Shown piece by piece: positions 1,877-19,600 of a stretch of DNA of 64,000 bases. This DNA comes from an uncultured Actinomycetes bacterium (GTDB lineage: Bacteria > Actinomycetota > Thermoleophilia > UBA2241). The stretch covers positions 14,156 through 78,155 of the forward strand of contig CAWJRV010000053.1 of assembly GCA_963845355.1 (NCBI GenBank), in the 5' to 3' direction. Numbering within the stretch: position 1 is the first letter of the stretch; the number at the start of each line of letters is the position of its first letter. The position numbers were made by a program, and so were the translations under genes. Below the pieces are notes generated by a model. That model ran no database searches, was not told the DNA's origin, and was given only the letters and a program-made list of their open reading frames with translations.

Positions 1877-2401
1877 ATGAAGCGTTCCAGCGTAGTTCCG
1901 GCGGCGGCCATCATGGCGACCGCCGTAGGGTTGGGCGCCGTGCTGGGCTATCACCCCAGCGGCGGCGCCGCGGCGAGCCTGCCGGCCGGCATCAAGGTCG
2001 GCACCACGGCCGGCGTGGGCGCCGGGACCAGCGCGGTCGGCACAGACCAGGCGCTGGCCGGTGGCCTCGGCGACATCCAGGTCCGGGTGAGCGCCCAGAA
2101 CGGCAAGATCACCAGCGTCGGCCTCGCCAAGTTGAACGTGCACGGACCGCAGTCGGCGCAGATCACCGGCAGCGTCGTCCCGCAGCTCATCCGCGAGACC
2201 ATGGCCGCCAACGGCGGTTCCATCCAGGCCGTCTCCGGCGCCACCTACACAAGCCAGGCTTACGCCACGTCACTGCAGTCCGCGCTCGACAAGATCGCCG
2301 CCACGGGAGGCACCAATGCAGCACTCGGAGCAAGTAATGGGAACGGTGGTGTCCTTAACAATGCGGGCGGCGGCGGAGACGGCGGCCTGGGCGACAACTA
2401 G
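1877..2401 (+). CDS. secreted/anchored FMN-binding domain protein (flavinylation substrate)
   Basis: ATG-1877 is preceded by GGAGGGA. It has an N-terminal signal/anchor (AAAIMATAVGLGAVLG) and the FMN_bind-type motif IQAVSGATYTSQAY (SGAT flavinylation site). The track ORF start at 1577 overlaps the upstream gene and is rejected. Confidence 0.8.
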   Translation: MKRSSVVPAAAIMATAVGLGAVLGYHPSGGAAASLPAGIKVGTTAGVGAGTSAVGTDQALAGGLGDIQVRVSAQNGKITSVGLAKLNVHGPQSAQITGSVVPQLIRETMAANGGSIQAVSGATYTSQAYATSLQSALDKIAATGGTNAALGASNGNGGVLNNAGGGGDGGLGDN

Positions 2402-2440
2402 CGGATCGGTGTCCGCCGCGGTGTCCGCGCCGGACCGCCG

Positions 2441-3175
2441 GTGGACCCGACCGCCACGGCCGCGACCGCCGGCGGTCACGAAGCCCTCAGCGGCGCCCTC
2501 GAGCGTGCGATCGCGGTGCTGCACCACGTCGACGACGTGTTCAGCACCTGGCAGCCGGACAGTCCGGTGAGCCGCCTGCGGCGCGGTGAGATAGAGCTCG
2601 ACGCCGCGCCGCCCGAGGTGGCCCGGGTCCTCGATCTCTGCCGCCGGGCGCGCACCGCTTCGGGCGGCTGGTTCGACCCCTGGCGGGTTGACGGCGGCGT
2701 CGATCCGACCGGTCTCGTCAAGGGCTGGGCGGCGGAGCTTGCGCTGGCCGAGCTGCGCGGCAGCGCCGCGGCCGCCCTGGTGAACGCCGGCGGCGACATC
2801 GCCGTGTTCGGCGAGCCCGAGCCGGGCCAGCAGTGGCGGATCGGCATCCGCGACCCGCTCGCGGCCGACCGCCTGCTCACAGTCGTGACCCTCGGAGGCC
2901 ACGACCGCGCGGTGGCCACTTCAGGCGCCTACGAACGCGGACCGCACGTGCTCGACCCCGAGAGCGGCGAGCCGGCCCAGGCTCTGCTGGCCGCGACCGT
3001 CGTGGGTCCGGACCTGGCCTTCGCCGATGCCCTGGCGACCGGTCTGTTTGCCTCCGGCGGCAAGGCCTTGGCGCGCGTCGCGGGGCTGCGTGGCTACAGC
3101 GCGCTCATCGTCGCCGGCGACGGATCGCTACGCGCGACGCTCGGGTTTCCGGCGGCGGTTGCGGCGGCGGCCTGA
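2441..3175 (+). CDS. apbE: FAD:protein FMN transferase (ApbE family), N-terminus apparently in another frame
   Basis: ApbE-type sequence is present: HHVDDVFSTWQPDSPVSRL, DPTGLVKGWA, VNAGGDIAV, TSGAYERG. The conserved N-terminal MGT strand (MQHSEQVMGTVVSLTMR) lies in the 2316..2570 ORF, one frame away. Confidence 0.75.
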   Translation: MDPTATAATAGGHEALSGALERAIAVLHHVDDVFSTWQPDSPVSRLRRGEIELDAAPPEVARVLDLCRRARTASGGWFDPWRVDGGVDPTGLVKGWAAELALAELRGSAAAALVNAGGDIAVFGEPEPGQQWRIGIRDPLAADRLLTVVTLGGHDRAVATSGAYERGPHVLDPESGEPAQALLAATVVGPDLAFADALATGLFASGGKALARVAGLRGYSALIVAGDGSLRATLGFPAAVAAAA

Positions 3176-3320
3176 TGGGCTGGAGCTTGCGGTCCGTCGG
3201 CTGCGGCGGGGCCGGGGGCTCGGGACGCGCTCCGCGAAACCAGAGTGGGGATCCGCAGCCTTCGGCTGCGGATGGTGCTCACGCTGCGAAGCGCCCCTCG
3301 TCCCCCGGCCCCGCCTTCGC

Positions 3321-3336
3321 GGGGGGGGGGGGGGGG
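3321..3336 (+). repeat. homopolymer G16 (intergenic)
   Basis: Counted directly: 16 consecutive G, preceded by a C-rich run (CCCCCGGCCCCGCC) that can pair with it. Confidence 0.95.
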
Positions 3337-3380
3337 TGGCTTATGATGAGACACGAAGCTGAAGCGAACCGGAGACTGCC

Positions 3381-3881
3381 GTGCAACACCAGGTGCGTCG
3401 TGCCCAGAACATCAGTCGTCGCTGCCTCGTCTGCGGAGCCGAGAACCCCTTCGGCCTGCACGGCTGCTTCTACGAGCTCGCCGGCGATGAGCTCCTTGGA
3501 GTCTTTCACCCGCGCGACGAACATCAGAGCTACCCGGGCCGCCTGCACGGGGGCATCTCCACGGCGATCCTCGACGAGACGATCGGCCGGGCGATCACCA
3601 TCGCCCATCCCGGCACCTGGGGCGTGACCGCGGCGCTCACGATGCGCTTTCGCCTGCCCGTGCCGCTCGATTCGGAGATCCGGGCCGTGGCTCGCATCAC
3701 CAGGGACACACCGCGCCTGTTCGAAGGCACGGGCGAGATCCTGCTCGATGACGGCCGGGTCGCCGTCGAGGCGCACGGCAAGTACATGAAGCTGCCCCTC
3801 GACGCCATCACCGACGGCGACTTCGATCAGGCCAACTGGTTCGCCGACCCGCGCGACCTGCCCGACAGCGTCGAGCTGTAG
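3381..3881 (+). CDS. PaaI/hotdog-fold acyl-CoA thioesterase
   Basis: 166-aa ORF with a GTG start 5 nt after GGAGA. It has an N-terminal CxxC (CLVCG) and a PaaI-type core (GRLHGGISTAILDETIGRA ... TAALTMRFRLPV). Confidence 0.75.
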   Translation: MQHQVRRAQNISRRCLVCGAENPFGLHGCFYELAGDELLGVFHPRDEHQSYPGRLHGGISTAILDETIGRAITIAHPGTWGVTAALTMRFRLPVPLDSEIRAVARITRDTPRLFEGTGEILLDDGRVAVEAHGKYMKLPLDAITDGDFDQANWFADPRDLPDSVEL

Positions 3882-3961: not shown

Positions 3962-3989
3962 TTGAGATAAGCTCACTATGCGGTAGACT
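3962..3989 (+). promoter_or_regulatory. putative sigma-70-type promoter of the marR-ABC exporter operon
   Basis: TTGAGA (3962-3967), a 16-nt spacer, then TAGACT (3984-3989), in one of the few AT-rich patches. TGAG/CTCA and TTGAG/CTCAA inverted motifs overlap it. Confidence 0.3.
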
Positions 3990-4086
3990 CAATTTCGTTA
4001 TCGACTCCAGAGACTCCCGCGAGGCACAGCCATGACGACGACAGGACCCCCCAGCCGCCACCGACCTCACCGCGCAGCTCACCGAG

Positions 4087-4512
4087 ATGCTGACCTGCGC
4101 CTCGTGGCGGCTGCGGCGAGGCTCCCGGCGAGAGCTCGAGCCGCTGGGGCTCACGTTTGGCCAGGCCCGCGCCCTGCGGCTTCTCGCGCGAGCGGGCGGA
4201 CCCGTGCGCATCGGAGCCCTGGCCGCCCGACTCGAGATCGTGCCCCGATCGGCCACCGCGATGGTCGACGGGCTCGAGACCGCCGGCCTCGCGAGCCGGC
4301 AGGCCGCCCCCGACGACCGCCGCTCGGTGCTCGTCGGTCTCACTCCGGCCGGCGACGCGCTCCTCGAACGGCTGAGCCGTGCCCGCCGGGCCAGCGCCGA
4401 AGAGCTCTTCGCCCGGCTCACGCCGTCACAGCAAGCGGGGCTCCTCGAGCTGCTCACGGTCCTCAACCGTCGCGACACCGAGCTCGCAGAGGGGCCGGAG
4501 GCGCCGGCATGA
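4087..4512 (+). CDS. MarR family transcriptional regulator
   Basis: 141 aa with a winged-HTH MarR pattern (LGLTFGQARALRLLARAGGPVRIGALAARLEIVPRSATAMVDGLE...DDRRSVLVGLTPAG). Its stop overlaps the next start (ATGA at 4509-4512). Confidence 0.85.
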   Translation: MLTCASWRLRRGSRRELEPLGLTFGQARALRLLARAGGPVRIGALAARLEIVPRSATAMVDGLETAGLASRQAAPDDRRSVLVGLTPAGDALLERLSRARRASAEELFARLTPSQQAGLLELLTVLNRRDTELAEGPEAPA

Positions 4513-6464
4513 TGGGGCCGGGCGGCTTTTCGGCGCTGCGCTCGCTGCGGCGTGGCCAGACAGACAAGGACGCCAACGTGCCCAAGGGTACGACGCGCCG
4601 CATCCTCACCTTTGTCGCTCCCTACAAATGGCCCCTGGCGCTGTTCCTGGTGCTCGTCGTGATCGACGCGATCGTGAGCGCCGCCAACCCGCTGATCTAC
4701 CGCGAGATCATCAATCGCGGCATCATCCCGGGCGCGGCTGCCCAGAAGGCGGGCCAGTCGGCCGACCACGAGATCAGGCTGATCGTCCTGCTGGCGCTGC
4801 TCGTCGCCGTCATCTCGATCGCCGACGCGGGGCTCTCGCTCGCCGAACGGTTCATCAGCGCGCGGGTCGGCGAGGGGCTCGTCTACGACATGCGCACCCG
4901 CGTGTTCGACCACGTGCAGCGCATGCCGATCGCCTTCTTTACCCGCACCCAGACCGGCGCCCTGGTCAGCCGCCTGAACAACGACGTCACGGGCGCGCAG
5001 GAAGCCTTCACCGACATCCTGTCGAGCGTCATCGGCAACCTCATCAGCGTGGGCATCGTGCTCGTGATCATGTTCGCCCTGTCGTGGCAGCTCACGCTGG
5101 TCGCGCTCCTGCTGCTGCCGGTCTTCATGCTGCCGGCGCGCTGGCTGGGGCGCCGCCTGCAGTCGATCACCCGCGAGCGCTACGAGCTGACCGCCGAGAT
5201 GAACAACGGCATGGTCGAACGCTTCAACGTCGCCGGGGCGTTGCTCGTGAAGCTCTTCGGCCACCCCGACGCCGAAAGCTCCGCCTTCAAAGACAAGGCG
5301 GGACGCGTGCGCGACATCGACATCGTGCAGGCCATCTACGGCCGCTTCTTCTTCATCGCCCTGCTGCTCACCGCGGCCCTGGCCACGGCGCTGGTCTACG
5401 GCTGGGGCGGGGTGCTCGCCGTTCACAACGAGCTCAGCGTCGGCACGGTCGTCGCCCTCGTGGCCTACCTGAACCGGCTCTACGGCCCGCTGACGGCGCT
5501 CTCCAACGTCAACGTCGACCTGATGACCGCGCTCGTGTCGTTCGACCGCGTCTTCGAGGTCCTGGACCTGCCGCCCATGGTCGCCGAACGGCCCGACGCG
5601 GCGACCCTGCCGCGCGGCCCGGCCCGCGTCGAGTTCGACCACGTCCGCTTTGCCTACCCCACCAGCAGCGAGGTCTCGCTGGCCTCGCTCGAGTCGGTGG
5701 CCGTGCTGAACGACACCCCGGGACAGACGGTCCTGCGCGACGTGAGCTTCACCGCCGAGCCGGGCCAGCTCGTGGCCCTCGTGGGCCCGTCGGGCGCGGG
5801 CAAGACGACCGTCAGTCAGCTGGTCCCCCGGCTGTACGACGTGCGCGCCGGGGCCATCCGTATCGACGGCGTCGACGTGCGCGACACGAGCTTCGCGTCG
5901 CTGCGGCAGTCCATCGGCATGGTCACCCAGGACGTCCACCTGTTCCACGACACGATCCGCGCCAACCTGCTCTACGCCAAACCCGATGCCGGCGACGACG
6001 AGATCGTCGAGGTGCTGCGGGCGGCCCAGATCATGCCGCTGATCGAATCGCTGCCCGACGGCCTCGACACCGTCGTCGGCGACCGCGGCTATCGCCTGTC
6101 GGGCGGCGAGAAGCAGCGTCTCGCCATCGCCCGGCTGCTGCTCAAGGCGCCCGATGTGGTGGTGCTGGACGAGGCGACCGCCCACCTCGACTCGGAGTCC
6201 GAGGTCGCCGTGCAGCGGGCCCTCAAGATCGCCCTCACGGGGCGCACGTCGCTGGTCATCGCCCACCGGCTGTCGACGGTGCGCGACGCCGACCAGATCC
6301 TCGTCCTGAAGGACGGCCGGATCGTCGAGCGCGGCCGCCACGACGAGCTGATCGCGGCCGGCGGCCTCTACTCAGAGCTGCACGCCACGCAGTTTCGCAG
6401 CCAGGCCGCCGCGTCCGAGGCCGAGGTGGGCGAACAGGCGAGCCAAAGCGAGCAGGCGAGTTAG
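4509..6464 (+). CDS. fused permease/ATPase ABC exporter (MsbA/multidrug type)
   Basis: An N-terminal six-helix TM domain is followed by Walker A GPSGAGKTT, signature LSGGEKQRLAIAR and Walker B VVVLDEATAHLD. The track ORF 4032..6464 has a spurious 5' extension; ATGATG at 4509 is translationally coupled to the MarR gene. Confidence 0.9.
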   Translation: MMGPGGFSALRSLRRGQTDKDANVPKGTTRRILTFVAPYKWPLALFLVLVVIDAIVSAANPLIYREIINRGIIPGAAAQKAGQSADHEIRLIVLLALLVAVISIADAGLSLAERFISARVGEGLVYDMRTRVFDHVQRMPIAFFTRTQTGALVSRLNNDVTGAQEAFTDILSSVIGNLISVGIVLVIMFALSWQLTLVALLLLPVFMLPARWLGRRLQSITRERYELTAEMNNGMVERFNVAGALLVKLFGHPDAESSAFKDKAGRVRDIDIVQAIYGRFFFIALLLTAALATALVYGWGGVLAVHNELSVGTVVALVAYLNRLYGPLTALSNVNVDLMTALVSFDRVFEVLDLPPMVAERPDAATLPRGPARVEFDHVRFAYPTSSEVSLASLESVAVLNDTPGQTVLRDVSFTAEPGQLVALVGPSGAGKTTVSQLVPRLYDVRAGAIRIDGVDVRDTSFASLRQSIGMVTQDVHLFHDTIRANLLYAKPDAGDDEIVEVLRAAQIMPLIESLPDGLDTVVGDRGYRLSGGEKQRLAIARLLLKAPDVVVLDEATAHLDSESEVAVQRALKIALTGRTSLVIAHRLSTVRDADQILVLKDGRIVERGRHDELIAAGGLYSELHATQFRSQAAASEAEVGEQASQSEQAS

Positions 6465-10126: not shown

Positions 10127-10900
10127 TCACACCGAGCGCTGATAAGAGCGGAAGGCCCGCGTGGCCAGGAGCGTGCAGACCACCGCGAAGACCAGTAGAT
10201 AGAGCGTGTCCGCCATCACGCCACTCGACGACGCGCCGCTCATGAGCGACGTGCGCCCCGCCTGGATGGCCCAGTTGGCCGGGTTGTAGCGGGCGATGTC
10301 CTGGATCCACTGCGGCGCCAGGTTCTGCTGCAAGAAAGCCGACGACAGGAAGATCAACGGCAGCAGCATCATGTTGACCACGGCGATGACCGACTCCTCC
10401 TTGCGCAGCAGCAGCGCGACGCCGTTCGACAGAGAGGCGACACCGATCGACAGCAGGGTCGAGACGACGATCAGCATGACGGCGCCGGCCACGCCGCCGC
10501 CGAACCGCCCTCCGACGAGCAGCGCCAGGCCCACGATGATGAGGGTCTGGATGAGGATCGTGAGCACCTGCGGTGTGACGCGGCCGAGCATGATCGCGCC
10601 GCGGCTGGTAGGCGCCACCAGAAAGCGGTCCATGACGCCGCGGTCGAGGTCGTCGATCATGCCCATGCCGCTCCAGCCGCCCGCGAACATGGCGCTCATC
10701 ACCACGATGCCGGGCGTGAGGAACGTGATGTACGAGTTGGTCGTGAACCCCGGGATCTCGACGACCTTCTTGAACAAGGCGCCGAACAGGAGCAGGTAGA
10801 CGATCGGCTGGAACAGCGAGAGGGCCACAAACCAGGGCTGGCGCAGAAAGTTGCGCACCTGGCGGAGCGTCAGGTGATAGGTATGTCGCAGCGCTGTCAT
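10127..10900 (-). CDS. ABC-2 type exporter permease (DrrB-like)
   Basis: 257 aa with six predicted helices and ABC-2 family appearance. Its start overlaps the stop of the upstream ATPase gene. Confidence 0.8.
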   Translation of the reverse strand: MTALRHTYHLTLRQVRNFLRQPWFVALSLFQPIVYLLLFGALFKKVVEIPGFTTNSYITFLTPGIVVMSAMFAGGWSGMGMIDDLDRGVMDRFLVAPTSRGAIMLGRVTPQVLTILIQTLIIVGLALLVGGRFGGGVAGAVMLIVVSTLLSIGVASLSNGVALLLRKEESVIAVVNMMLLPLIFLSSAFLQQNLAPQWIQDIARYNPANWAIQAGRTSLMSGASSSGVMADTLYLLVFAVVCTLLATRAFRSYQRSV

Positions 10901-11877
10901 CGGGTGACCTCCGCGGTCGTGTCGGCCTGCTCGAAGCGGCGGCCGGTATGCATGAGATAGACGTCGTCGAGCGAAGGCCGGGCGACGGTGACCGAGACGA
11001 CGCTCACGCCGTGGGCCTCGAGGGCCTGCAGCACCACCGGCACGGCGCGCGCACCGTTGTCGGCGCGGGCGTGCAGCAGGCGGCCCTCGGCGACGACCAC
11101 GTCGTGGACGTCGGCGATCTGCGCCAGCGCAGCGGCGACGCGTCCGTTGGTCTCGGGCTCGCCGAGCTCGACGTGCACGGCATCGCCGTGCAGCTCGCTC
11201 TTCAGCTCGTCGGGCGAGCCGAGCGCCACGACCTTGCCCTCGTCTACGATCGCGAGGCGTCGCGCCAGCCGGTCGGCCTCTTCCAGGTAATGCGTGGTGA
11301 GCAGGATCGTGAGCCCCTCTTCATTGGCGAGCCGCTCGATCTCGGTCCACATGTCGGCCCGCGCCTCGGGGTCGAGACCGGTCGTCGGTTCGTCCAGAAA
11401 GAGCACATCGGGACGATGCACGAGCCCCATGGCGACGTCGAGCTTGCGTTGCATGCCGCCCGAGTAGGTGTCGGTGACGCGGCGCGACGCGTCGGCCAGG
11501 CCGAAGCGCTCCAGCATCGCGTCGACGCGCTGCTCGAGCGTACGCCCGCCCATGCCGTACAGCCGTCCCTGCAGCATCATGTTCTCGCGCCCCGTGGCGT
11601 GGACGTCGACCCCCGACTTCTGGGTCACGCAGCCGATCGCGTGGCGCACGAGGTCGGGCCGCTTGAGCACGTCGATGCCGGCCACGGTGGCCTGGCCCTG
11701 GTCGGGCCGCGACAGCGTCGTCAGGATCTTGACCGTGGTCGACTTGCCGGCGCCGTTGGGCCCGACCAGGCCGAACACGCTGCCGGCCGCGACCTCGAAA
11801 CCGACGCCGTCGAGCGCCCGCACCCCCTTTGGGTAGGTCTTCACCAGCCCCTGCGCCGAGATTGCCGTTTCCGTCAT
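10897..11877 (-). CDS. ABC transporter ATP-binding protein (DrrA/daunorubicin-resistance type)
   Basis: Walker A GPNGAGKST, signature YSGGMQRKL and Walker B VLFLDEPTTGLD, plus the C-terminal extension typical of DrrA-like ATPases. Confidence 0.9.
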   Translation of the reverse strand: MTETAISAQGLVKTYPKGVRALDGVGFEVAAGSVFGLVGPNGAGKSTTVKILTTLSRPDQGQATVAGIDVLKRPDLVRHAIGCVTQKSGVDVHATGRENMMLQGRLYGMGGRTLEQRVDAMLERFGLADASRRVTDTYSGGMQRKLDVAMGLVHRPDVLFLDEPTTGLDPEARADMWTEIERLANEEGLTILLTTHYLEEADRLARRLAIVDEGKVVALGSPDELKSELHGDAVHVELGEPETNGRVAAALAQIADVHDVVVAEGRLLHARADNGARAVPVVLQALEAHGVSVVSVTVARPSLDDVYLMHTGRRFEQADTTAEVTR

Positions 11878-11962
11878 GGTGGTACCGCCCTTTACCTGGT
11901 TGCTCGCGGCCGCCGCCAGGTGGCCGCCGCCAGGTGGCCGCCGCGAGCCGTGAGAGAACGTT

Positions 11963-12016
11963 CACAGTTTAGTTCCTAGATATTTCGATTGTCAAACTGT
12001 AATTCTGTGGTATATT
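11963..12016. promoter_or_regulatory. bidirectional promoter/operator cassette, copy 1 (DrrAB-like operon <-> MarR-toastrack gene)
   Basis: Minus strand: TTGACA (11995-11990), 18 nt, TAAACT (11971-11966). Plus strand: TTGTCA (11989-11994), 16 nt, TGgTATATT (12008-12016). 27/34 nt are identical to 18077-18110. ACAGTTT (11964-11970) is inverted to AAACTGT (11994-12000). Confidence 0.5.
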
Positions 12017-12101
12017 ATCTGCCAAGGAATCAGCGCTTCGCGAGCGAACAAGCGAAGCGATCGGCAGGCATGGCCCGTCCTACCCGGTAGCGAGGCGCAG
12101 C

Positions 12102-13226
12102 ATGACAGAAGACACGCAGAAGCTGATCGACGACGTCGGCATCGAGCTTGGAGAGCTGCGCCGCACAGCCGACCGTCTCGACGAAGCCGTGGCCACGCAG
12201 TTCGGCCTCAACCGCACCGATCTGCGCTGTATCGGGATACTGTACCGCCGCGGGCGCGTCACCGCCGGCGAGCTCGCCGAGGAGAGCGGCCTGACTCCCG
12301 GAGCGATCACCACGGTACTCGACCGCATGGAACGCGACGGCTACGCCAACCGGGTGGCCGACCCCAGCGACCGCCGGCGCGTGCTGGTCACCTCGACGAC
12401 CGCCACGCGAGAGCTTGGAGCGCGCGTATACGGCGAGGTCGAGCTGGCCGGGCGAGCGCTGCTCGAACAGATCGAGCCCGCCGGCATCACCGTGATCCGC
12501 GACTATCTGCGCGGCATCCGCGAGTTCTACGACGACCTGGTCCGCAGCGTGGCCACGCCGGCCGGCGTCGGCGTCGCGGGCGACACCGGCACGGTGACCG
12601 GCGCCGACGCGCCCCTGGAGGGCGCTTTCACGGCGCCGCTGGCCGGCGTACAGCTTGGCCGGCTCGAGTTCATCAAGGGCGCCGCCAAAGTGAAGATCGC
12701 CGTCGATGCGACACTGACCGAGCTCTACCGCGCCGAGTTCGACGGCGGTGTTCCCGACATCGTCGTCAACGGCGGCACGGTGACGATCGGTCACAAGCGA
12801 CGCTTTCTGCCGTTCGACTGGCGCGTCGCCAAGTCCGCTGTCTGGCTCAACCCCGCGGTGCCCTGGGAAGCCTCGCTCAAGGGTGGCATGTGGCAGCTCG
12901 CCGCCGACTTTCGCGGTCTCGAGCTGCGCTCCCTCGAGGTAGGCGGCGGCGCGAGCGACGTCGAGATCTGGCTGCCGGCGCCGGTCGGGGTCGTGGCGGT
13001 GCGCATCTCCGGCGGAGCGAGCCACGTGCGGTTGCACCGCCCGGCCGGCAGCGCGCTGCGCGCCGAAGTCACCGGCGGCGCCAGCCAGCTCGTGTTCGAT
13101 CGCAAGTCGCTCGGTTCGATCGGCGGTCGCAACCGCCTCGAGACGCCGGGCTTCGCGGCCGCGAGCGACCGCTACGAGGTGCGCCTGAGCGGCGGCGCGA
13201 GCGAGCTCGAGATCGACATCGTGTAG
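12102..13226 (+). CDS. MarR-type HTH regulator fused to a C-terminal GGAS beta-repeat (toastrack/LiaF-C-like) domain
   Basis: Residues ~1-150 are MarR-like (FGLNRTDLRCIGILYRRGRVTAGELAEESGLTPGAITTVLDRMERDGYANRVADPSDRRRVLV). Residues ~165-374 carry four spaced repeats (GGGASDVEIWLP, SGGASHVRLHRP, TGGASQLVFD, SGGASELEIDIV). No TM segment is present. Confidence 0.7.
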   Translation: MTEDTQKLIDDVGIELGELRRTADRLDEAVATQFGLNRTDLRCIGILYRRGRVTAGELAEESGLTPGAITTVLDRMERDGYANRVADPSDRRRVLVTSTTATRELGARVYGEVELAGRALLEQIEPAGITVIRDYLRGIREFYDDLVRSVATPAGVGVAGDTGTVTGADAPLEGAFTAPLAGVQLGRLEFIKGAAKVKIAVDATLTELYRAEFDGGVPDIVVNGGTVTIGHKRRFLPFDWRVAKSAVWLNPAVPWEASLKGGMWQLAADFRGLELRSLEVGGGASDVEIWLPAPVGVVAVRISGGASHVRLHRPAGSALRAEVTGGASQLVFDRKSLGSIGGRNRLETPGFAAASDRYEVRLSGGASELEIDIV

Positions 13227-13248: not shown

Positions 13249-13650
13249 TCAGGTCGTCGTGCACAGCGGGTCTTCGGGGTGCTGTGCACAGTAGGCTGCC
13301 GATGGGCGTCCGCCGGGCTGCCGGCGGCGGCGCGCCAGGATCCACGCGGCGACGATGATGAGCGCGGCCGCAGCCAAGCCGGCAACGATCCAGGCGTTCC
13401 TGACAGACGCGCCCGATGAGCCGGACAGCGCGGGCGAAACGGCTGGCACAGTCCTGCCTCCGGTGGCGTGCGGCGGCAAAGCCGTCGAGGGTCGTGGCTG
13501 GGTGGGCGTCGCCAACGAGACGGTGCCCGGCTGTGCCCTGGCTCCATCGGTCCTGGCCTGCGCCGCCTGGACGCCCGTGGCGATCACGATCAATGCCAGG
13601 AGCAACGGACCGGCGAACAGCCCGAGCCGTCTGTGTGACTTGATCTGCAT
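13249..13650 (-). CDS. small secreted, C-terminally anchored protein (unknown function)
   Basis: ATG-13650 is preceded by GAGGTGAG. It has a signal peptide (LGLFAGPLLLALIVIATGVQAAQA), a Pro/Thr/Ser-rich linker, a C-terminal helix (AWIVAGLAAAALIIVAAWIL) followed by RRRRQ, and a short Cys-containing tail. Confidence 0.55.
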   Translation of the reverse strand: MQIKSHRRLGLFAGPLLLALIVIATGVQAAQARTDGARAQPGTVSLATPTQPRPSTALPPHATGGRTVPAVSPALSGSSGASVRNAWIVAGLAAAALIIVAAWILARRRRQPGGRPSAAYCAQHPEDPLCTTT

Positions 13651-13765
13651 GATCTCACCTCTGGACGCACGCGCCGCAGTCACGGCAGAGTCCGCGTCCC
13701 GATAAGCGGACGGGCAAGCCCGCCTGCGATTAGACCAGAGACGGTCTATGACCCTGCGGCGACCC

Positions 13766-13795: not shown

Positions 13796-14848
13796 TCAGT
13801 CGTGAGGCGCGGCCAGCGGCAGTTCGAAGGCGATCGTCGTGCCCCGTCCCGGCGCGCTCGCCGCCGTGACGACGCCCCCGTGGCGCTCGATGATCCAGCG
13901 GGCGATGGCCAGGCCCAGGCCGCTGCCGCCGCGGTCGCGTGAGCGCGAGGCGTCGGCCCTGTAGAAGCGATCGAAGACGTGGTCCACGTCGGCCGGCGCG
14001 ATGCCGGGCCCCTGGTCAGCGACACTGACGGTCGCCGCCGCGCCCACCACCGCCAGCGACACCACGACCGTGTCGCCGGGCGCAGAGTGTTCGATCGCGT
14101 TCCTCACGACGTTGCGCAGGGCGCGCTCGAGGTGGGCCGCGTCGACGGTCGCGCTGACGGCGCCGTCCGGCGCCGTCAGCGCGACCGTCACCCCTCCCCG
14201 CTCGGCCATGGTGCGCATGCCGTCGGCCGTGGCTCGCACCAGCTCCGCCAGGTCGACCGGCGCGAACCGCAGCTCCTCTTGATGAGCGTCGATGCGCGAC
14301 AGCAGCAGCAGATCGGAGACGATGGCGCTCATGCGGTCGACCTCCTCCAGGCCGCTGCGCAGCGACTCGCGCAGCTCCTCGGTCTCGCTGCGCGGCGGGC
14401 CTGCCTCTCCGGCATCACCCCCCGGGCTGCGCAGCGCCACTTCGAAGTCGGCCTTCATGATGGCGAGCGGCGTGCGCAGCTCGTGCGAGGCGTCGGCGAC
14501 GAAGCGCTTCTGGGCACCGTAGAGTTCGCGGATGGGGTGCAAGGTGCGCCGCGCATACCAGAGCCCCAGCGCACCGACCGCCACGACGATCACGCCGTCG
14601 GCGGCCACGAGCTGCCAGCGCAGGCGGCTGATCGACCGCGAGGCCAGCTCGCCTTCGATCTCGTTCCCATGCTCGCTGGAACGACCCTGTGCGACGCCGG
14701 AGATGTTCGTCTTGACGGTTAGGTACATGATCACGCCCGACACGGCCACGAGCAGCACGACGATGGCCGTGAACAGCACCACGAGGCGCGTGGTCGCGCG
14801 GGCGAAGACGTCGGGGCCGCCGCTACCGGTCACCATCAGCTCAGGCAC
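13796..14848 (-). CDS. sensor histidine kinase
   Basis: Two TM helices, H-box ADASHELRTPLA, N box VVRNAIEHS, and G boxes DQGPGI and GGSGLGLAIA. Its start overlaps the end of the regulator gene by 8 nt. Confidence 0.9.
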   Translation of the reverse strand: MPELMVTGSGGPDVFARATTRLVVLFTAIVVLLVAVSGVIMYLTVKTNISGVAQGRSSEHGNEIEGELASRSISRLRWQLVAADGVIVVAVGALGLWYARRTLHPIRELYGAQKRFVADASHELRTPLAIMKADFEVALRSPGGDAGEAGPPRSETEELRESLRSGLEEVDRMSAIVSDLLLLSRIDAHQEELRFAPVDLAELVRATADGMRTMAERGGVTVALTAPDGAVSATVDAAHLERALRNVVRNAIEHSAPGDTVVVSLAVVGAAATVSVADQGPGIAPADVDHVFDRFYRADASRSRDRGGSGLGLAIARWIIERHGGVVTAASAPGRGTTIAFELPLAAPHD

Positions 14849-15515
14849 GCAGCCGGTAGCCGACGCCGCGCACGGTCTCCAGCAGGTGCGGTCCGCCGGC
14901 GCCGTCGACCTTGCGGCGCAGGTTCTTCAGGTGCACGTCGATCACGTTGCTGCCGGCGTCGTACTCGTCGTCCCAGACGTGGTCGAGAATGCGGTCGCGG
15001 CTGAGCACCTCGCCCGGGTGGCGCATGAGGAACTCGAGCAGGGCGAATTCCTTGACCGTGAGCTCGAGGTCCACGGCGCCGCGCCGCACGGTGCGCGAGA
15101 CCGGATCGAGCACGAGATCGCCGGCCGAAAGCATCGCCGGCAGGGCGCGGCGCGGGCGGCGCAGCAACGTGCGCACACGAGCCAGCAGCTCCTCGAAGGC
15201 GAAAGGCTTGACCAGGTAGTCGTCGGCGCCGCTGTCGAGGCCGGTCACCTTGTCGTCGGTCGTATCGCGGGCCGTGAGCATGAGCACCGGCACCGTGAGA
15301 CCACGCTCGCGCAGGTCGCGACAGATGCTGAAGCCGTCGAGGCCCGGCAGCATGACGTCGAGCACGACCAGGTCGTACTCGTCGTGCCGGCTGCGCAGGC
15401 GCGTCTGCGCAGCGCGGCCGTCGCCGAGCGTGTCGACCGCGTAGCCCTCCTGTTCGAGGCCGCGCTTGAGCACCTGGGCGAGCTTGTCGGCGTCCTCGAC
15501 AACGAGCAGTCTCAT
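14841..15515 (-). CDS. OmpR-family response regulator
   Basis: Receiver domain (MRLLVVEDAD...DLVVLDVMLPGLDG...LMLTARD) and winged-helix output domain (LTVKEFALLEFLMRHPGEVLSRDRILDHVW...VRGVGYRL). Confidence 0.92.
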   Translation of the reverse strand: MRLLVVEDADKLAQVLKRGLEQEGYAVDTLGDGRAAQTRLRSRHDEYDLVVLDVMLPGLDGFSICRDLRERGLTVPVLMLTARDTTDDKVTGLDSGADDYLVKPFAFEELLARVRTLLRRPRRALPAMLSAGDLVLDPVSRTVRRGAVDLELTVKEFALLEFLMRHPGEVLSRDRILDHVWDDEYDAGSNVIDVHLKNLRRKVDGAGGPHLLETVRGVGYRLRA

Positions 15516-15690
15516 GTCCTGCGTTCTACCCGGTTCGGGACGGCCGACGCAATGCCCGCGGTTGAGCCACCGGCCGGAAGAGGCGGCGATGAGCGCCGGG
15601 GCCCTCCTGCGCCGGGGCCCTCCTGCCCCGGCGCCCGCACCGCCCCGGGACCGAGCTGACGGTGATCACCGGCGAGCCGCGACAGAGTCG

Positions 15691-18045
15691 CTATGCGCCG
15701 ACCGGCGTCGCCGCGGCCGCCGTCGCACCCTCGGCGAGGCCACCGTGAGCTGCAGCGTCGCCTGCCGCATCGCCTGCCGCATCTCCTGCCGCGGCGCCCC
15801 CCGCCGGACCGCCGACATGCCCCTCGACGCTCACGTTGGGTAGCCACTCGAGCCAGCGCGGCAGGTACCAGTTCCAGTCGCCGAGCAGCTCCATGGCGGC
15901 CGGCACGATGATCGTGCGCACCACCGTGGCGTCGATCAGGACGGCGACGGCCAGGCCAAAGCCCATCTGCTGGAACATGACGAGCTGGCCGCCCGCCATG
16001 CCGGCGAAGACGCAGACCATGATCGCCGCGGCGCCCGTGATGATGCCGGCGGTGCGGCCGACACCGTAGGCCACCGCCTCGCGCGCGTCACCTGAGTGGT
16101 CGAAGCGCTCCTTGATGCGGCTGAGCAGAAAGACCTGGTAGTCCATGGAGAGACCGAACAGCAGGCTGAACAGAAAGAGCGGCACCCAGGCCTCGATCGT
16201 GTCGACGTGGGTCAGGCCGAGCAGGTGGGCGCCGAGGCCCTTCTGAAAGACGAGCACCATGAGGCCGTAGGCGGCGCCCACCGACAGCAGGTTCATGGCG
16301 ATCGCCTTGGCCGGAATGACGATCGAGCGGAAAGCCACGAGCAGCAAGACGAAGCTGAGCGACAGCACGACGGTCAGAGCGATCGGCAGCCAGCGGTGAA
16401 AGAAGGCGAGGTAGTCGACCACGAAGGCGGTGTTGCCGGAGACGTAGACCTTGGCGGGCGCACCGGCGAAGGCGGCCGGTACCATGGTGGCGCGAAGCTG
16501 CGTCACGAGAGCTCGCGTGGCATCGCCGGCCGGGTCGCCCGAAAGGCTGGTCGAGACCAGCGTCAGGTCGCCTGCCTTGTCGACGGTCACCTGTGCCGGC
16601 CCAAAGCGGCCGTCGCTTCTCATGGCCGTCTCGAGGCGTGCGACCGCCTGCTTGACCCTGGGCGCCGACGCCGGGCCGTCGACGACGATCTGCAACGGAT
16701 TGGCCTTACCCAGCGAGAAGTCCCGGCCGAGGATGTCCCAGCCCTGCTTGGAGTACTGGTCGGCCGGCAGGTAGCGCGCCGTCATGTTGGTGTTGCCGGT
16801 CTTCATCACGAGCACCGGCGACGCCAGCGTGAGCAGCGCCACGACGGCCACCGTGAGCCAGACCACAGGGCGGCGCATGATGGCGTGGGCGAGCCGCTCG
16901 AACAGGGCCGAGCCGGCGGCGGCGCGCCTCAGGGCCAGGTGCCCGACCACCGGCACGCGCAGGGCGTTCACGTGGTCCCCGAGCAGCCCCAGCAGGGCCG
17001 GCAGCAGGATCAGGGTGGTGAGCAGCGTCGTAAAGACGACCAGCATGACGCCGAGGCCCATGCTGATGGTGATGTCGAGCGGCACGATGACCATGCCGAG
17101 CATGGCCAGAAAGACGGTCATGCCGCTGAAGAAGATGGCCCGGTTGGCGGTGGCGCCGGTGGCCGCGATGGCGTCGATCCTAGCGAGGCCGCGAGCGCGC
17201 TCTTCGCGATATCGCGAGATCACGAAGAGCGTGTAGTCGATACCCACCGCCAGACCCATCATGGTGAGGACGTTCAGCACGAAGGTGTTCATCGGGTAGA
17301 TCTGGCCGATCAGGCCGGTCAAGGCGAGCGCCAGGACGATGCTGAGCATACTGAGAAGGAGCGGCAGGCCGGCGGTGACCAGCGCGCCGAACACGATCAC
17401 CAGGACGATCAGAGCCGCCGGAACGCCGAAGATCTCGGCCTTTTCCATGTCGCTCTTGGCAACCTGGGTGATCATCTCGTTCAGGCTGGCGTCGCCGGTC
17501 TGGGCCAGCGTAAAGCCGTGCCCCGCCCCGGCCACGACGACCGCATGCAGCCTGTCGACGTGTTTCATGGCCGTGTCCTGGTCGCCGGCCATGACGACCG
17601 GCAGCAGCGCCCCGCGGCCGTCTTTTGAGACCAGCGTCTGGTCGTGGGTCGCGTAGACGTTCGTGACGCTCTGCACCACGCCGGGCCCCAGCCCGGCGAT
17701 CTGGGCGGTCAGGCCTTCGACGTAGCGCCGAAACGCCGGGTCACCGACCTTGAGGCTCGCCGAACGCACGATGACGAAGTCGGTCATGCGCTGCGGACCG
17801 GTCAGACGCTTCTCGACCAGGTCCTGGCCGATCAGGCTGGCGGGCTTGCTGCCGCGAAACTGCATGTTCGACGTGACCCCGCTCGACAGCAACACGCCGA
17901 GCGAGGCCATCGCGATCGCAGTGAGAACGAGCCAGGCGCCGATGGTGCGCCAAGGATGAGTGGCGCTCGTTCGAGCGAGCCGCTCCGTGAACGACGACCC
18001 TCTGCCTGCCCGCCCTCTCGTGACGCCCTGCTCATGCTGATTCAT
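15691..18045 (-). CDS. MMPL family (RND-type) membrane transporter
   Basis: About 785 aa with two six-helix bundles and two extracytoplasmic loops, typical of MMPL proteins. ATG-18045 (MNQHEQ) follows GAGGGTGGGG; the GTG at 18057 is an alternative start. The C-terminal tail carries GDAAGDAAGDAA repeats. Confidence 0.85.
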   Translation of the reverse strand: MNQHEQGVTRGRAGRGSSFTERLARTSATHPWRTIGAWLVLTAIAMASLGVLLSSGVTSNMQFRGSKPASLIGQDLVEKRLTGPQRMTDFVIVRSASLKVGDPAFRRYVEGLTAQIAGLGPGVVQSVTNVYATHDQTLVSKDGRGALLPVVMAGDQDTAMKHVDRLHAVVVAGAGHGFTLAQTGDASLNEMITQVAKSDMEKAEIFGVPAALIVLVIVFGALVTAGLPLLLSMLSIVLALALTGLIGQIYPMNTFVLNVLTMMGLAVGIDYTLFVISRYREERARGLARIDAIAATGATANRAIFFSGMTVFLAMLGMVIVPLDITISMGLGVMLVVFTTLLTTLILLPALLGLLGDHVNALRVPVVGHLALRRAAAGSALFERLAHAIMRRPVVWLTVAVVALLTLASPVLVMKTGNTNMTARYLPADQYSKQGWDILGRDFSLGKANPLQIVVDGPASAPRVKQAVARLETAMRSDGRFGPAQVTVDKAGDLTLVSTSLSGDPAGDATRALVTQLRATMVPAAFAGAPAKVYVSGNTAFVVDYLAFFHRWLPIALTVVLSLSFVLLLVAFRSIVIPAKAIAMNLLSVGAAYGLMVLVFQKGLGAHLLGLTHVDTIEAWVPLFLFSLLFGLSMDYQVFLLSRIKERFDHSGDAREAVAYGVGRTAGIITGAAAIMVCVFAGMAGGQLVMFQQMGFGLAVAVLIDATVVRTIIVPAAMELLGDWNWYLPRWLEWLPNVSVEGHVGGPAGGAAAGDAAGDAAGDAAAHGGLAEGATAAAATPVGA

Positions 18046-18076
18046 CTGACACCCCACCCTCGGACTGCTGAACGGC

Positions 18077-18130
18077 CACAGTTTAGCGTGACGATATTTA
18101 GATTGTCAAATAATCATCTTCTCGTATAGT
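18077..18130. promoter_or_regulatory. bidirectional promoter/operator cassette, copy 2 (MMPL-RR-HK operon <-> long leader)
   Basis: Minus strand: TTGACA (18109-18104), 18 nt, TAAACT (18085-18080). Plus strand: TTGTCA (18103-18108), 16 nt, TATAGT (18125-18130). The geometry is the same as copy 1. Confidence 0.5.
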
Positions 18131-18475
18131 GCTGACCTGCTGAGCAAAGGCTACCGGCAGACTCCCCGCCGGGCGTCGCCCCAGCGGTGGAGATCGGGGT
18201 CAACTCCGGGAAGAACTCTCGAGGGTGTCCAGCGGCCTGGCGGCGAGGACCCCTGGATCGTTCGTCATCCTGCAGGGGTAGAAACCGTCATCCTTCAGAG
18301 GGATGGCGCCAGCCCGCGCCCGCCCGCGACGGCCCGCGGGCGGGCGCCGGCGGCCGCGGGCCGACGCCCTGCGACCAGCCGCGGCCGCCGGTCCACGCGC
18401 CGTCACAGCGCCGGAGCGATCGCCGGTCGTGCTGATGATAGGCTGTCGAGCGAACGTGATGGAGGTTTCCCGCGC

Positions 18476-19600
18476 ATGACCACCGAGACCGCACCGACCA
18501 CCCTTCCCTACCGCGCGCCGATGGGCGCCGGCCCGGCCGAGATCGACACTCCCGCGCTGCTGCTCGACCACGACAAGCTCAGCCGCAACATCGCACGCAT
18601 GGCCGCCTTCGTGGCCGGCGGCCCGGCGAAGCTGCGACCGCACAGCAAGAGTCACAAATGCGTCGAGATCGCCCGCCTGCAGCTCGCCGCCGGCGCGACG
18701 GGCATCACCTGCGCCAAGGTCGGCGAAGCCGAAGCGCTGGCCGACGGCGGCATCACCGACATCCTCATCGCCAACCAGATCGTCGGGCCGATCAAGATCG
18801 CCCGTCTCATAGCCCTGGCTCGCCGCTGCACCGTCACGGTGGCCGTCGACGATGCCGGCAACGTCGCCCAGCTCTCGCAGGCCGCTGAGCGCGCCGGCGT
18901 CGGCATCCGCTGCTACGTCGAGGTCGACATTGGCATGGGTCGTTGCGGCGTGCCCGACGGAGCGGCCGCGCTGCGGCTGGCGCGGCTCATCGACGAGAGT
19001 CCGGGGCTGGCCTTCGGCGGGCTGCAGGCCTACGAGGGACACCTGCAGGAGCTGGAGCCGCTCGACGAACGCATCGCGCTCACCAGGCGCGATATGGAGC
19101 GAGCCCGCGCCGCCAAAGAGGCCGTCGAAGCCGGCGGCCTCGCGGTCGGGCAGGTGAGCGGCGGCGGCACCGGCACGCACCTGGTCACCGGCCGCCTGCC
19201 CTTCATGACCGAGTTGCAATGCGGCTCGTATGCCACCATGGACGCCGAGTACAAGGCGGTCGGCGGGGCCGACTTCGACAACGCCCTCACCGTGCTCGCC
19301 ACGGTCGTGAGCCGGCCGCGCCCAGAAAGCGCCGTGATCGACGCCGGCCTCAAGGCGATCACGCCCGAGTTCGGCCAGCCGGCGGTGTTATGCGACGGCG
19401 CGGGCTGGCGCGGCTTCTCCGAAGAACACGGCGAGCTCACCCTGAGCGGACCGGCGCGTGACCTGCGCGTCGGCGACAAGCTCGAGCTGATCCCCCGTCA
19501 CGGCTGCACCACCGTCAACCTCTACGACCGTTTCCACGTGATGCGCGAGGGCCGGCTGATCGACGAGTGGACCGTCGCCGGGCGGGGGCGCAGCCAATGA
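18476..19600 (+). CDS. PLP-dependent D-threonine aldolase / D-serine dehydratase-like (DSD1, alanine-racemase N-terminal fold) enzyme
   Basis: 374 aa with a TPALLLD...LRPHSKSHKC motif (PLP lysine context) and a C-terminal LIPRHGCTTVNLYD typical of the D-TA/DSD1 family. Confidence 0.75.
   Translation: MTTETAPTTLPYRAPMGAGPAEIDTPALLLDHDKLSRNIARMAAFVAGGPAKLRPHSKSHKCVEIARLQLAAGATGITCAKVGEAEALADGGITDILIANQIVGPIKIARLIALARRCTVTVAVDDAGNVAQLSQAAERAGVGIRCYVEVDIGMGRCGVPDGAAALRLARLIDESPGLAFGGLQAYEGHLQELEPLDERIALTRRDMERARAAKEAVEAGGLAVGQVSGGGTGTHLVTGRLPFMTELQCGSYATMDAEYKAVGGADFDNALTVLATVVSRPRPESAVIDAGLKAITPEFGQPAVLCDGAGWRGFSEEHGELTLSGPARDLRVGDKLELIPRHGCTTVNLYDRFHVMREGRLIDEWTVAGRGRSQ

Follow-up and report, generated by a model that had tools for sequence, protein, structure and literature searches.

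Why should a DNA-binding protein of the MarR family carry, behind its winged helix, a second domain of the type found in the envelope-stress protein LiaF? The question is raised by a gene in a stretch of 64,000 nucleotides (the window) taken from contig CAWJRV010000053.1 of an uncultured bacterium of the Thermoleophilia. An earlier note, made from the sequence alone, had reported an open reading frame (ORF) of 374 amino acids (aa) at 12102-13226, with an N-terminal MarR winged helix of about 150 aa and a C-terminal domain resembling the 'toastrack' of LiaF. The ORF is present as reported. Our analysis indicates that its product is most likely a cytoplasmic one-component regulator composed of a complete MarR winged helix, a flexible linker of about 20 residues and a soluble DUF2154/LiaF-like toastrack. 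We propose, with a probability of roughly 0.6, that it is an autoregulated repressor of membrane exporters in which the toastrack serves as the input for a signal or a docking partner.

The N-terminal part was recognised by the Pfam MarR model (PF01047), which matched residues 36-94 at E=5.8e-14 with 52.2 bits against a cutoff of 24.6 and so bears out the winged helix of the earlier note. Named MarR equivalogs of NCBIfam resemble the protein below threshold only. A full-length AlphaFold2 model, built on an alignment of 46 sequences, had a mean pLDDT (predicted local distance difference test) of 86.7 and consisted of a MarR fold, a linker and an all-beta domain; pLDDT of the last exceeded 90. 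Helices of the MarR part were placed at residues 2-34, 38-50, 55-62, 66-78, 100-122 and 126-151 and wing strands at 82-86 and 94-98. The model thus contains the full MarR fold, in which the dimerisation helices (2-34, 100-122 and 126-151) flank a winged helix-turn-helix (HTH) with its wing at 82-98. A Foldseek comparison with the PDB returned dozens of MarR-family structures with template modelling scores (TM-scores) of up to 0.72; complexes with DNA were included, and MepR and MarR were among the matches. The wing motif D87-P88-x-D90-R91-R92-R93 was invariant in an alignment of 46 homologs with 59-93% identity. With the Pfam threshold passed and the fold matched, the protein belongs to the MarR family. 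Its sole cysteine, Cys43 (12228-12230), also lies in this domain, in the motif NRTDLRC, and is invariant in the same 46 homologs; it possibly senses redox state, as in MarR proteins of the OhrR type, or plays a structural role only.

The MarR domain is followed by a stretch that was disordered in the model (residues 152-172, pLDDT below 50) and variable and gapped among the homologs (residues 152-175). As claimed, no transmembrane segment was found in the fusion protein, the maximum 19-residue Kyte-Doolittle hydropathy being 1.24.

The identity of the remaining part, residues 176-374, is less easily read from domain libraries. Neither Pfam nor NCBIfam gave a family for residues 152-374 even at E<=10, and direct comparison of the fusion protein itself with PF09922, PF17115 and PF13349 gave no match; this toastrack subfamily is too divergent for current Pfam models. 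A profile of 18 C-terminal domains matched PDB 4qrk_A (E=3.4e-10, about 135 residues), and in the alignment the GGAS turns pair with G-x-G turns of 4qrk. The matched part of 4qrk consists of Pfam LiaF-like_C (PF09922, E=2.7e-8) and Toast_rack_N (PF17115, E=5e-6), and two members of our family give weak PF09922 matches of their own. The search with hidden Markov models that the earlier note had suggested for this part of the protein was thus silent at the level of Pfam and NCBIfam and informative at the level of a profile.

Structure comparison, also suggested in the note, gave the same partner, since 4qrk ranked first for both models. With the full-length model it was found at E=4e-10 with a target-normalised TM-score of 0.78 over 215 columns. 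A model of the domain alone (pLDDT 92.4; predicted TM-score, pTM, 0.88) matched the whole chain of 4qrk at E=4.7e-11 with TM-scores of 0.80/0.76 over 212 columns, and weaker matches were to the 'putative adhesin' toastrack structures 4ygu, 3lyc, 3pet, 4opw, 3ljy and 3jx8. The Toastrack domain has been defined as uniting DUF2154, DUF4097 and DUF2807, with 4QRK and 4OPW as its two defining structures (PMC11237479). Membership of residues 176-374 in the Toastrack superfamily, and with it the claimed LiaF-C-like identity, is therefore supported by the predicted fold and by the profile similarity to 4qrk.

The predicted domain opens with an intertwined beta region (approximately residues 176-260), which is followed by the rungs of a beta-helix. 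Rung turns of the form GG(M/A)(W/S) lie at residues 261, 282, 304, 325 and 364, the first of them being a degenerate GGMW that marks a fifth rung, and their spacings are 21, 22, 21 and 39. The translation contains all four GGAS peptides listed in the earlier note, and their GGAS motifs begin at residues 282, 304, 325 and 364; the even spacing ascribed to them holds for the first three copies (22 and 21) and fails for the last (39). The motif is not a product of chance, because its glycine, alanine and serine positions are invariant or nearly so in the 46 homologs. The many invariant charged or aromatic residues of the domain include R187, D202, Y209, R233, D239, W240, R241, W255, D269, E288, R313, D333 and R357.

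Is the fusion peculiar to this genome? It is not, being conserved in uncultured Actinomycetota of soil. When the last 223 aa were used as query, a database search returned 502 proteins at E<=1e-3. Among the matches listed, nearly all were 365-390 aa long and had a MarR Pfam domain, and those with a name were called 'MarR family transcriptional regulator' and belonged to metagenome-assembled genomes (MAGs) of Thermoleophilia or Actinomycetes. When each GTDB species was represented by a single genome, a scan found 50 loci, all of them from uncultured Actinomycetota and mostly from Thermoleophilia; the best locus ('uncultured Actinomycetes bacterium MFD01188.bin.1.141') was 95% identical. In 49 of the 50 the MarR domain immediately precedes the beta domain, the exception being a fragment of 1.8 kb. 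Identity within the C-terminal domain was 54-95%, and dozens of its residues were invariant. The survey of architecture and neighbourhood envisaged in the earlier note has thus placed the fusion in about 500 proteins. Because the same arrangement recurs in independent assemblies, the joining of two genes by an assembly indel, which the note had named as a way in which its reading could fail, is excluded.

An exhaustive profile search reached 4,974 cluster representatives at E<=1e-3, with 440 at E<=1e-30. Among the best 149 of the 4,974, a MarR N-terminus was present in 52, four were fusions with TetR_N and TetR_C, and five had LiaF-TM or LiaI-LiaF-like_TM1 membrane regions. Of the remaining best 149, most were soluble and free-standing; they measured about 200-240 aa, began with a short hydrophilic stretch and had no transmembrane segment. 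One MarR fusion originates from Chloroflexota. Public names in the sampled members were 'MarR family', 'TetR/AcrR family ... C-terminal domain-containing' and 'hypothetical protein'. What emerges is a branch of the LiaF-type toastrack whose members are mostly soluble and which escapes the domain models now in use. The earlier note was right that the toastrack of this protein lacks a membrane segment; within the subfamily the soluble state is normal, and membrane regions are found in a minority of the closest relatives. No two-component system (TCS) was found beside the LiaF-TM-type cousin P0188, so even the membrane-anchored members of the subfamily are not classical LiaFSR systems.

Regulators and toastracks also meet outside the MarR fusions. 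In two loci a free MarR gene adjoins a free toastrack gene. Locus L055 (353-2368), like L056, encodes a 442-aa TetR_N/TetR_C protein with a C-terminal toastrack; its gene is divergent from that of a free toastrack paralog of 201 aa (47% identity), and such a pair hints at interplay between toastracks. In L060 a free soluble toastrack gene (3968-4624, plus strand) is divergent from the gene of a 569-aa HisKA_3 (LiaS-type) kinase (1997-3703, minus strand), and SnoaL-like/DUF4440 genes flank the free toastrack genes of L060, L061 and L064. The free MarR/toastrack pairs, the TetR fusions and the pair of TetR fusion and paralog fit a regulator-toastrack partnership of the Rosetta-stone type. Beyond the fusions the linkage is not general, and the support that it lends is suggestive and modest.

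The candidate target of the regulator lies next to it. The fusion gene is divergent from a DrrA/ABC-2 gene pair for an ATP-binding cassette (ABC) exporter of the drug/lipid type and convergent with a group of kinase, response regulator and MMPL transporter genes, so that its reported position between an ABC exporter and a TCS-MMPL operon is correct. The divergent exporter pair was found in 41 of the 50 related loci and on three further long contigs, and the kinase/response regulator/MMPL group only in about the ten closest relatives among the 50.

The spacer between the fusion gene and the DrrA gene is 224 bp long, GC-rich like the window as a whole (about 70% GC throughout) and poorly conserved save for an AT-rich core, which occupies the same position in 47 loci. 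The shared promoter cassette mentioned in the earlier note proved to be real and to exist in two copies, at 11944-12041 and 18063-18155, which are the sole AT-rich islands of the window. A consensus scan detected four promoter-like sites in total against an expectation of 0.2 (Table 1). The two -35 hexamers of the back-to-back promoters overlap one another, and over them lies a 21-bp dyad with the skeleton A-N3-TT-N-GA-N3-TC-N-AA-N3-T. Those of its conserved positions that fall outside the -35 hexamers are themselves symmetric, and in a position matrix of 47 sites dyad symmetry peaked at 0.59 (median 0.25), centred on the shared -35 region. Exactly two sites in the window fit the skeleton where 0.14 would be expected, also with one mismatch allowed. 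Of 59 loci examined, 47 contain it a single time, and in each of them it lies immediately upstream of the fusion gene. From these sequence features the dyad is likely to be an operator. An inverted repeat, ACAGTTT-N23-AAACTGT, was also considered as operator and dropped, as its left arm is the -10 element of the exporter promoter and reads AGTGTA in other clades; the dyad centred on -35 is better conserved than this repeat.

The second copy (cassette 2) is flanked by the MMPL gene and a gene for an Ala_racemase_N/D-Ser-dehydratase-like enzyme. Since it is absent from L003, a related locus with the same MMPL operon, cassette 2 is a recent, lineage-specific duplication. The duplication may have extended the regulon. 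Cassette 2 is not conserved in relatives with the MMPL operon, and control of that operon would therefore be a matter of this lineage only.

How might the system work? A dyad over its own and a divergent promoter is a common layout for MarR-family efflux regulators. Because the dyad covers the -35 regions of both the fusion gene and the exporter operon, we propose that the fusion protein would bind to it as a dimer and that its occupancy would repress both the gene of the regulator and the drrAB-like exporter. In this genome cassette 2 would bring the MMPL-response regulator-kinase operon under the same control, and with it the oppositely oriented Ala-racemase-like and adenosine-deaminase genes. 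Both targets probably export hydrophobic or amphiphilic compounds. The toastrack is proposed to act as the input module, a role modelled on LiaF/VraT and on the 'docking platform' that has been published for the Toastrack. At the inner membrane face it might contact a protein or an assembly, for instance the exporter or another toastrack protein, and under envelope or transport stress this contact would release the repressor or sequester it. Established here are the identities of the domains, the conservation of the fusion, the exporter as a conserved neighbour and the promoter/dyad cassette as a conserved element; repression, the dimeric mode of binding, the signal itself and the way of docking are what we infer from the arrangement of the locus and from these parallels.

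Several observations weigh against this proposal. The pTM of the full-length model was 0.56, so that no fixed interface between the MarR and toastrack domains is predicted. The loci that yielded the dyad skeleton are also those in which it was counted, so that the second site in the window is the only independent one, and the promoter elements alone explain much of the conservation of the cassette. The homologous MMPL upstream region of L003 is, as stated above, without cassette 2. The exporter does not adjoin the fusion gene in 6-7 assessable loci, and loci without the ABC pair carry PurD-like, TetR plus MMPL, or SulP genes in its place. Free toastrack genes have heterogeneous neighbours (SnoaL-like, HisKA_3 kinase, MarR, TetR). 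All carriers in the locus scan are uncultured MAGs. Finally, no result obtained here identifies a partner or a ligand of the toastrack.

Of the roles that the toastrack could play, docking or sequestration ranks first, oligomerisation second and ligand binding third. The specific idea that the domain is a true signal receiver, which docks on the DrrAB-type exporter or on other toastracks under stress and pulls MarR off the shared operator, is put forward tentatively. The two large beta-sheets of the Toastrack have been proposed as intracellular docking surfaces near the membrane that may signal to a 'fused or associated HTH' (PMC11237479), and LiaF-type domains are ascribed an inhibitory, protein-contact role towards their signalling partners (PMC11237479, PMC10269926). 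A rather doubtful alternative is that the toastrack is mainly an oligomerisation module: the ends or sheets of the beta-helix would stack and turn MarR dimers into tetramers or higher forms with cooperative binding, and free toastrack paralogs would serve as caps or competitors. The pairing of the TetR fusion with its free paralog would agree with this, as would the highly regular and conserved turn and strand motifs and the two operator copies in the window. The same domain is, moreover, carried by two unrelated DNA-binding families that are already dimeric. That last point cuts both ways, because MarR and TetR proteins dimerise through helices of their own. In addition, about 6.1 kb separates the two operators, of which the second lacks conservation, and a search of the window with two profiles found no second toastrack gene.

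Direct binding of a small molecule or lipid by the toastrack, such as an exporter substrate or an envelope lipid intermediate, would make the protein a classic ligand-sensing regulator. This we regard as unlikely, and as ranking behind oligomerisation. The presumed targets (DrrAB-like and MMPL) fit such a role as exporters of hydrophobic or amphiphilic compounds, and so do the many invariant charged and aromatic residues of the domain. The structural neighbour 3jx8 is annotated as a 'putative lipid binding protein', but the match is weak (E=0.06, TM-score 0.26) and the name is a guess made in structural genomics. The usual site of ligand binding in MarR proteins is the MarR fold itself, and the literature searched names no ligand for any toastrack protein. 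That the fusion is an assembly or annotation artefact, or its C-terminal half a decaying non-functional appendage, is extremely improbable. Nothing was found in favour of it, the public annotation, 'MarR family transcriptional regulator', taking no account of the C-terminal domain. The same single ORF recurs in about 500 cluster representatives from independent assemblies and sources as well as in 49 of the 50 loci, and identity levels, invariant residues and the confident fold of the C-terminal domain all speak against decay. An autoregulated exporter repressor with the toastrack as its input module remains the reading that we prefer.

Table 1. Features of the MarR-toastrack locus and its surroundings (positions in the window)
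Feature	Position	Strand	Basis or remark
MarR-toastrack fusion gene	12102..13226	+	ORF with ATG start, 374 aa plus stop; same architecture in ~500 homologs
MarR winged-helix DNA-binding/dimerisation domain, residues 1-151	12102..12554	+	Pfam MarR, fold, Foldseek, invariant wing
Disordered, length-variable linker, residues 152-172	12555..12617	+	pLDDT <50; gapped in alignment
Soluble toastrack domain, residues 176-374	12627..13223	+	profile to 4qrk, domain model, Foldseek
Fusion-gene promoter-like site, TTGTCA-16-TATATT with upstream TG	11989..12016	+	consensus scan; conserved across loci
ABC exporter promoter-like site, TTGACA-18-TAAACT	11966..11995	-	consensus scan; -10 is TAAACT/TACACT across loci
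Predicted operator 1, 21-bp dyad ATATTTCGATTGTCAAACTGT	11980..12000		over shared -35 region; dyad symmetry, skeleton counts
Predicted operator 2, ATATTTAGATTGTCAAATAAT	18094..18114		inside cassette 2
Cassette 2 promoters	18063-18155	+/-	TTGTCA-16-TATAGT (+), TTGACA-18-TAAACT (-)
DrrA-family ABC ATPase, presumed primary target	10897..11877	-	TIGR01188 drrA 329.9 bits vs 312.45 cutoff; Pfam ABC_tran and DrrA1-3_C
DrrB-like ABC-2 permease	10127..10900	-	Pfam ABC2_membrane E=1.4e-29; TIGR01247 drrB E=8e-37, below cutoff
HisKA kinase	13796-14848	-	Pfam; presumed secondary target operon (13796..18057), this genome
OmpR-type response regulator (Trans_reg_C)	14841-15515	-	Pfam; presumed secondary target operon
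MMPL transporter	15691-18057	-	Pfam; downstream of cassette 2 minus-strand promoter

Some further elements of the locus deserve mention. The gene beyond cassette 2 (18476..19600) also encodes 374 aa and was considered as a paralog of the fusion on account of its equal length; this was rejected, the product being the unrelated Ala_racemase_N/D-Ser-dehydratase-like enzyme. In the gap of about 570 bp between the fusion gene and the kinase gene an ORF of 144 aa (13249-13683, minus strand) has hydrophobic N- and C-terminal stretches. It gave no match in Pfam or NCBIfam and none by tblastn in the 50 related loci, and the corresponding gap in L003 is only 40 bp; the ORF is either a lineage-specific insertion or spurious.

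The presumed 5' leader of the exporter mRNA contains a 14-nt tandem repeat, GGCCGCCGCCAGGT, in three copies (11902-11949), which at the same time forms a 23-nt inverted repeat. This region folds at -41 kcal/mol, which is not significantly beyond shuffled sequence (z = -1.5). More generally, hairpins in the leaders on either side of cassette 1 were no better than those of shuffled sequences, with z = -1.5 and 0.0. Between the plus-strand promoter of cassette 2 and the gene at 18476 there is a leader of about 345 nt (18131-18475). A block of about 80 nt within it (approximately 18140-18225, GGCGTCGCCCCAGCGGTGGAGATCGGGGTCAAC...) is conserved with L003:12380-12470, though L003 is without the cassette. 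Rfam returned only a tRNA at gathering level in the whole window and nothing credible in the leader region 18050-18500; the block could be an undescribed leader or regulatory RNA. Downstream of the fusion gene, five related loci (L028, L029, L034, L036 and L046) have a further conserved promoter-like motif, CGATTGTCAAAGCGCGGCCG-CCTCCTATGATTTCGAAAAGGGA, on the minus strand at a distance of about 2-5 kb. It shares the core GATTGTCAAA with the cassette and is without the dyad skeleton.

How does the fusion protein compare with known systems? LiaF/VraT (YvqF), of the LiaFSR/VraTSR envelope-stress systems of Firmicutes, has a toastrack of the same DUF2154/LiaF-like_C type, linked to ours via 4qrk. 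Some close relatives of the window toastrack carry LiaF-TM or LiaI-LiaF-like_TM1 regions, and in both cases a regulatory role is tied to envelope or exporter genes. The fusion protein has a MarR domain at its N-terminus in place of the LiaI-LiaF-TM membrane region, and the Pfam LiaF-like_C model does not score it. Its toastrack is fused to a DNA-binding domain, whereas LiaF acts on a separate LiaS-type (HisKA_3) kinase. The TCS beside the fusion gene is of HisKA plus OmpR type rather than LiaS/LiaR (LuxR/NarL-type), and it is absent from most loci. Because it lacks both the LiaF-TM region and a conserved LiaS/LiaR-type partner, the fusion protein is not an orthologue of LiaF/VraT. The protein of known structure, CLOSPO_03726 of Clostridium sporogenes (PDB 4QRK), matches over the whole chain with equivalent G-x-G/GGAS turns, but identity is 16-18%, and 4QRK is free-standing, has no DNA-binding domain and was deposited as a 'putative cell adhesion protein'.

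The closest published parallel is found in operons of Toastrack, ABC ATPase, permease and a transcription factor (GntR-HTH or ribbon-helix-helix, RHH), which a comparative-genomics study of PSP describes and reports from Actinobacteria as well (PMC11237479). In them, as here, one locus brings together a transcription factor, a toastrack and the two genes of an ABC exporter, but there the toastrack is membrane-anchored and the GntR or RHH regulator is separate, whereas here the toastrack is soluble and fused to MarR. In the lltR operon of Listeria monocytogenes (LltR, lmo0600, lmo0601) a winged-helix repressor is genetically coupled to a protein of the toastrack superfamily and is autoregulated. 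Unlike the fusion, the operon has separate genes, a PadR-like LltR, a DUF1700/HAAS membrane partner (lmo0600) and a toastrack of the DUF4097 subtype (lmo0601), which the authors of the Listeria study termed an exoprotein. Nor is the fusion gene part of a HAAS-PadR-Toastrack system: the PadR-like winged HTH and HAAS (DUF1700) families of such systems were not among the neighbours in the window or in loci L001-L003. With classical MarR repressors (MepR-mepA, MarR-marRAB) the fusion protein shares the MarR fold, a divergent exporter and a palindromic site over the promoters. Those repressors, in contrast, are single-domain proteins of about 140-160 aa that sense ligands or oxidants in the MarR fold, and they lack the extra beta-helical domain of about 200 residues. 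Fusions of MarR or TetR with a toastrack were not described in the publications retrieved by full-text literature searches, and neither MarR nor TetR is mentioned in the main text or in one supplementary file of PMC11237479. The general idea of HTH-linked toastracks is thus known; what is new is a MarR regulator with an unrecognised soluble toastrack of the LiaF type.

The finding bears on a disputed matter. Toastrack domains (LiaF, VraT, PspC partners) are central to antibiotic-relevant envelope-stress signalling. The topology of the LiaF C-terminus is controversial, an extracellular location being given in PMC10269926 and an intracellular one predicted in PMC11237479, where a cytoplasmic location of the Toastrack had already been foreseen. 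A LiaF-type relative that is fused to both MarR and TetR, two DNA-binding families that are necessarily cytoplasmic, provides independent genomic evidence that the toastrack functions inside the cell, because it is covalently joined to them. The finding also exposes a gap in domain models that is estimated to concern several thousand proteins, to judge from the 4,974 representatives, of which the members checked are named only for their MarR or TetR/AcrR part or as hypothetical.

The fusion suggests a short signalling path, in which the status of the toastrack would set promoter occupancy directly. The system is compact, consisting of a single protein, a 21-bp site and the operon of one exporter, and it could therefore be a tractable heterologous reporter for toastrack ligands or partners. 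If the toastrack is indeed a docking receiver, the protein would be a one-component sensor of envelope or efflux stress, a 'LiaF on a repressor'. It would then offer the first directly readable output for toastrack binding, and the cytoplasmic topology of the domain would be settled.

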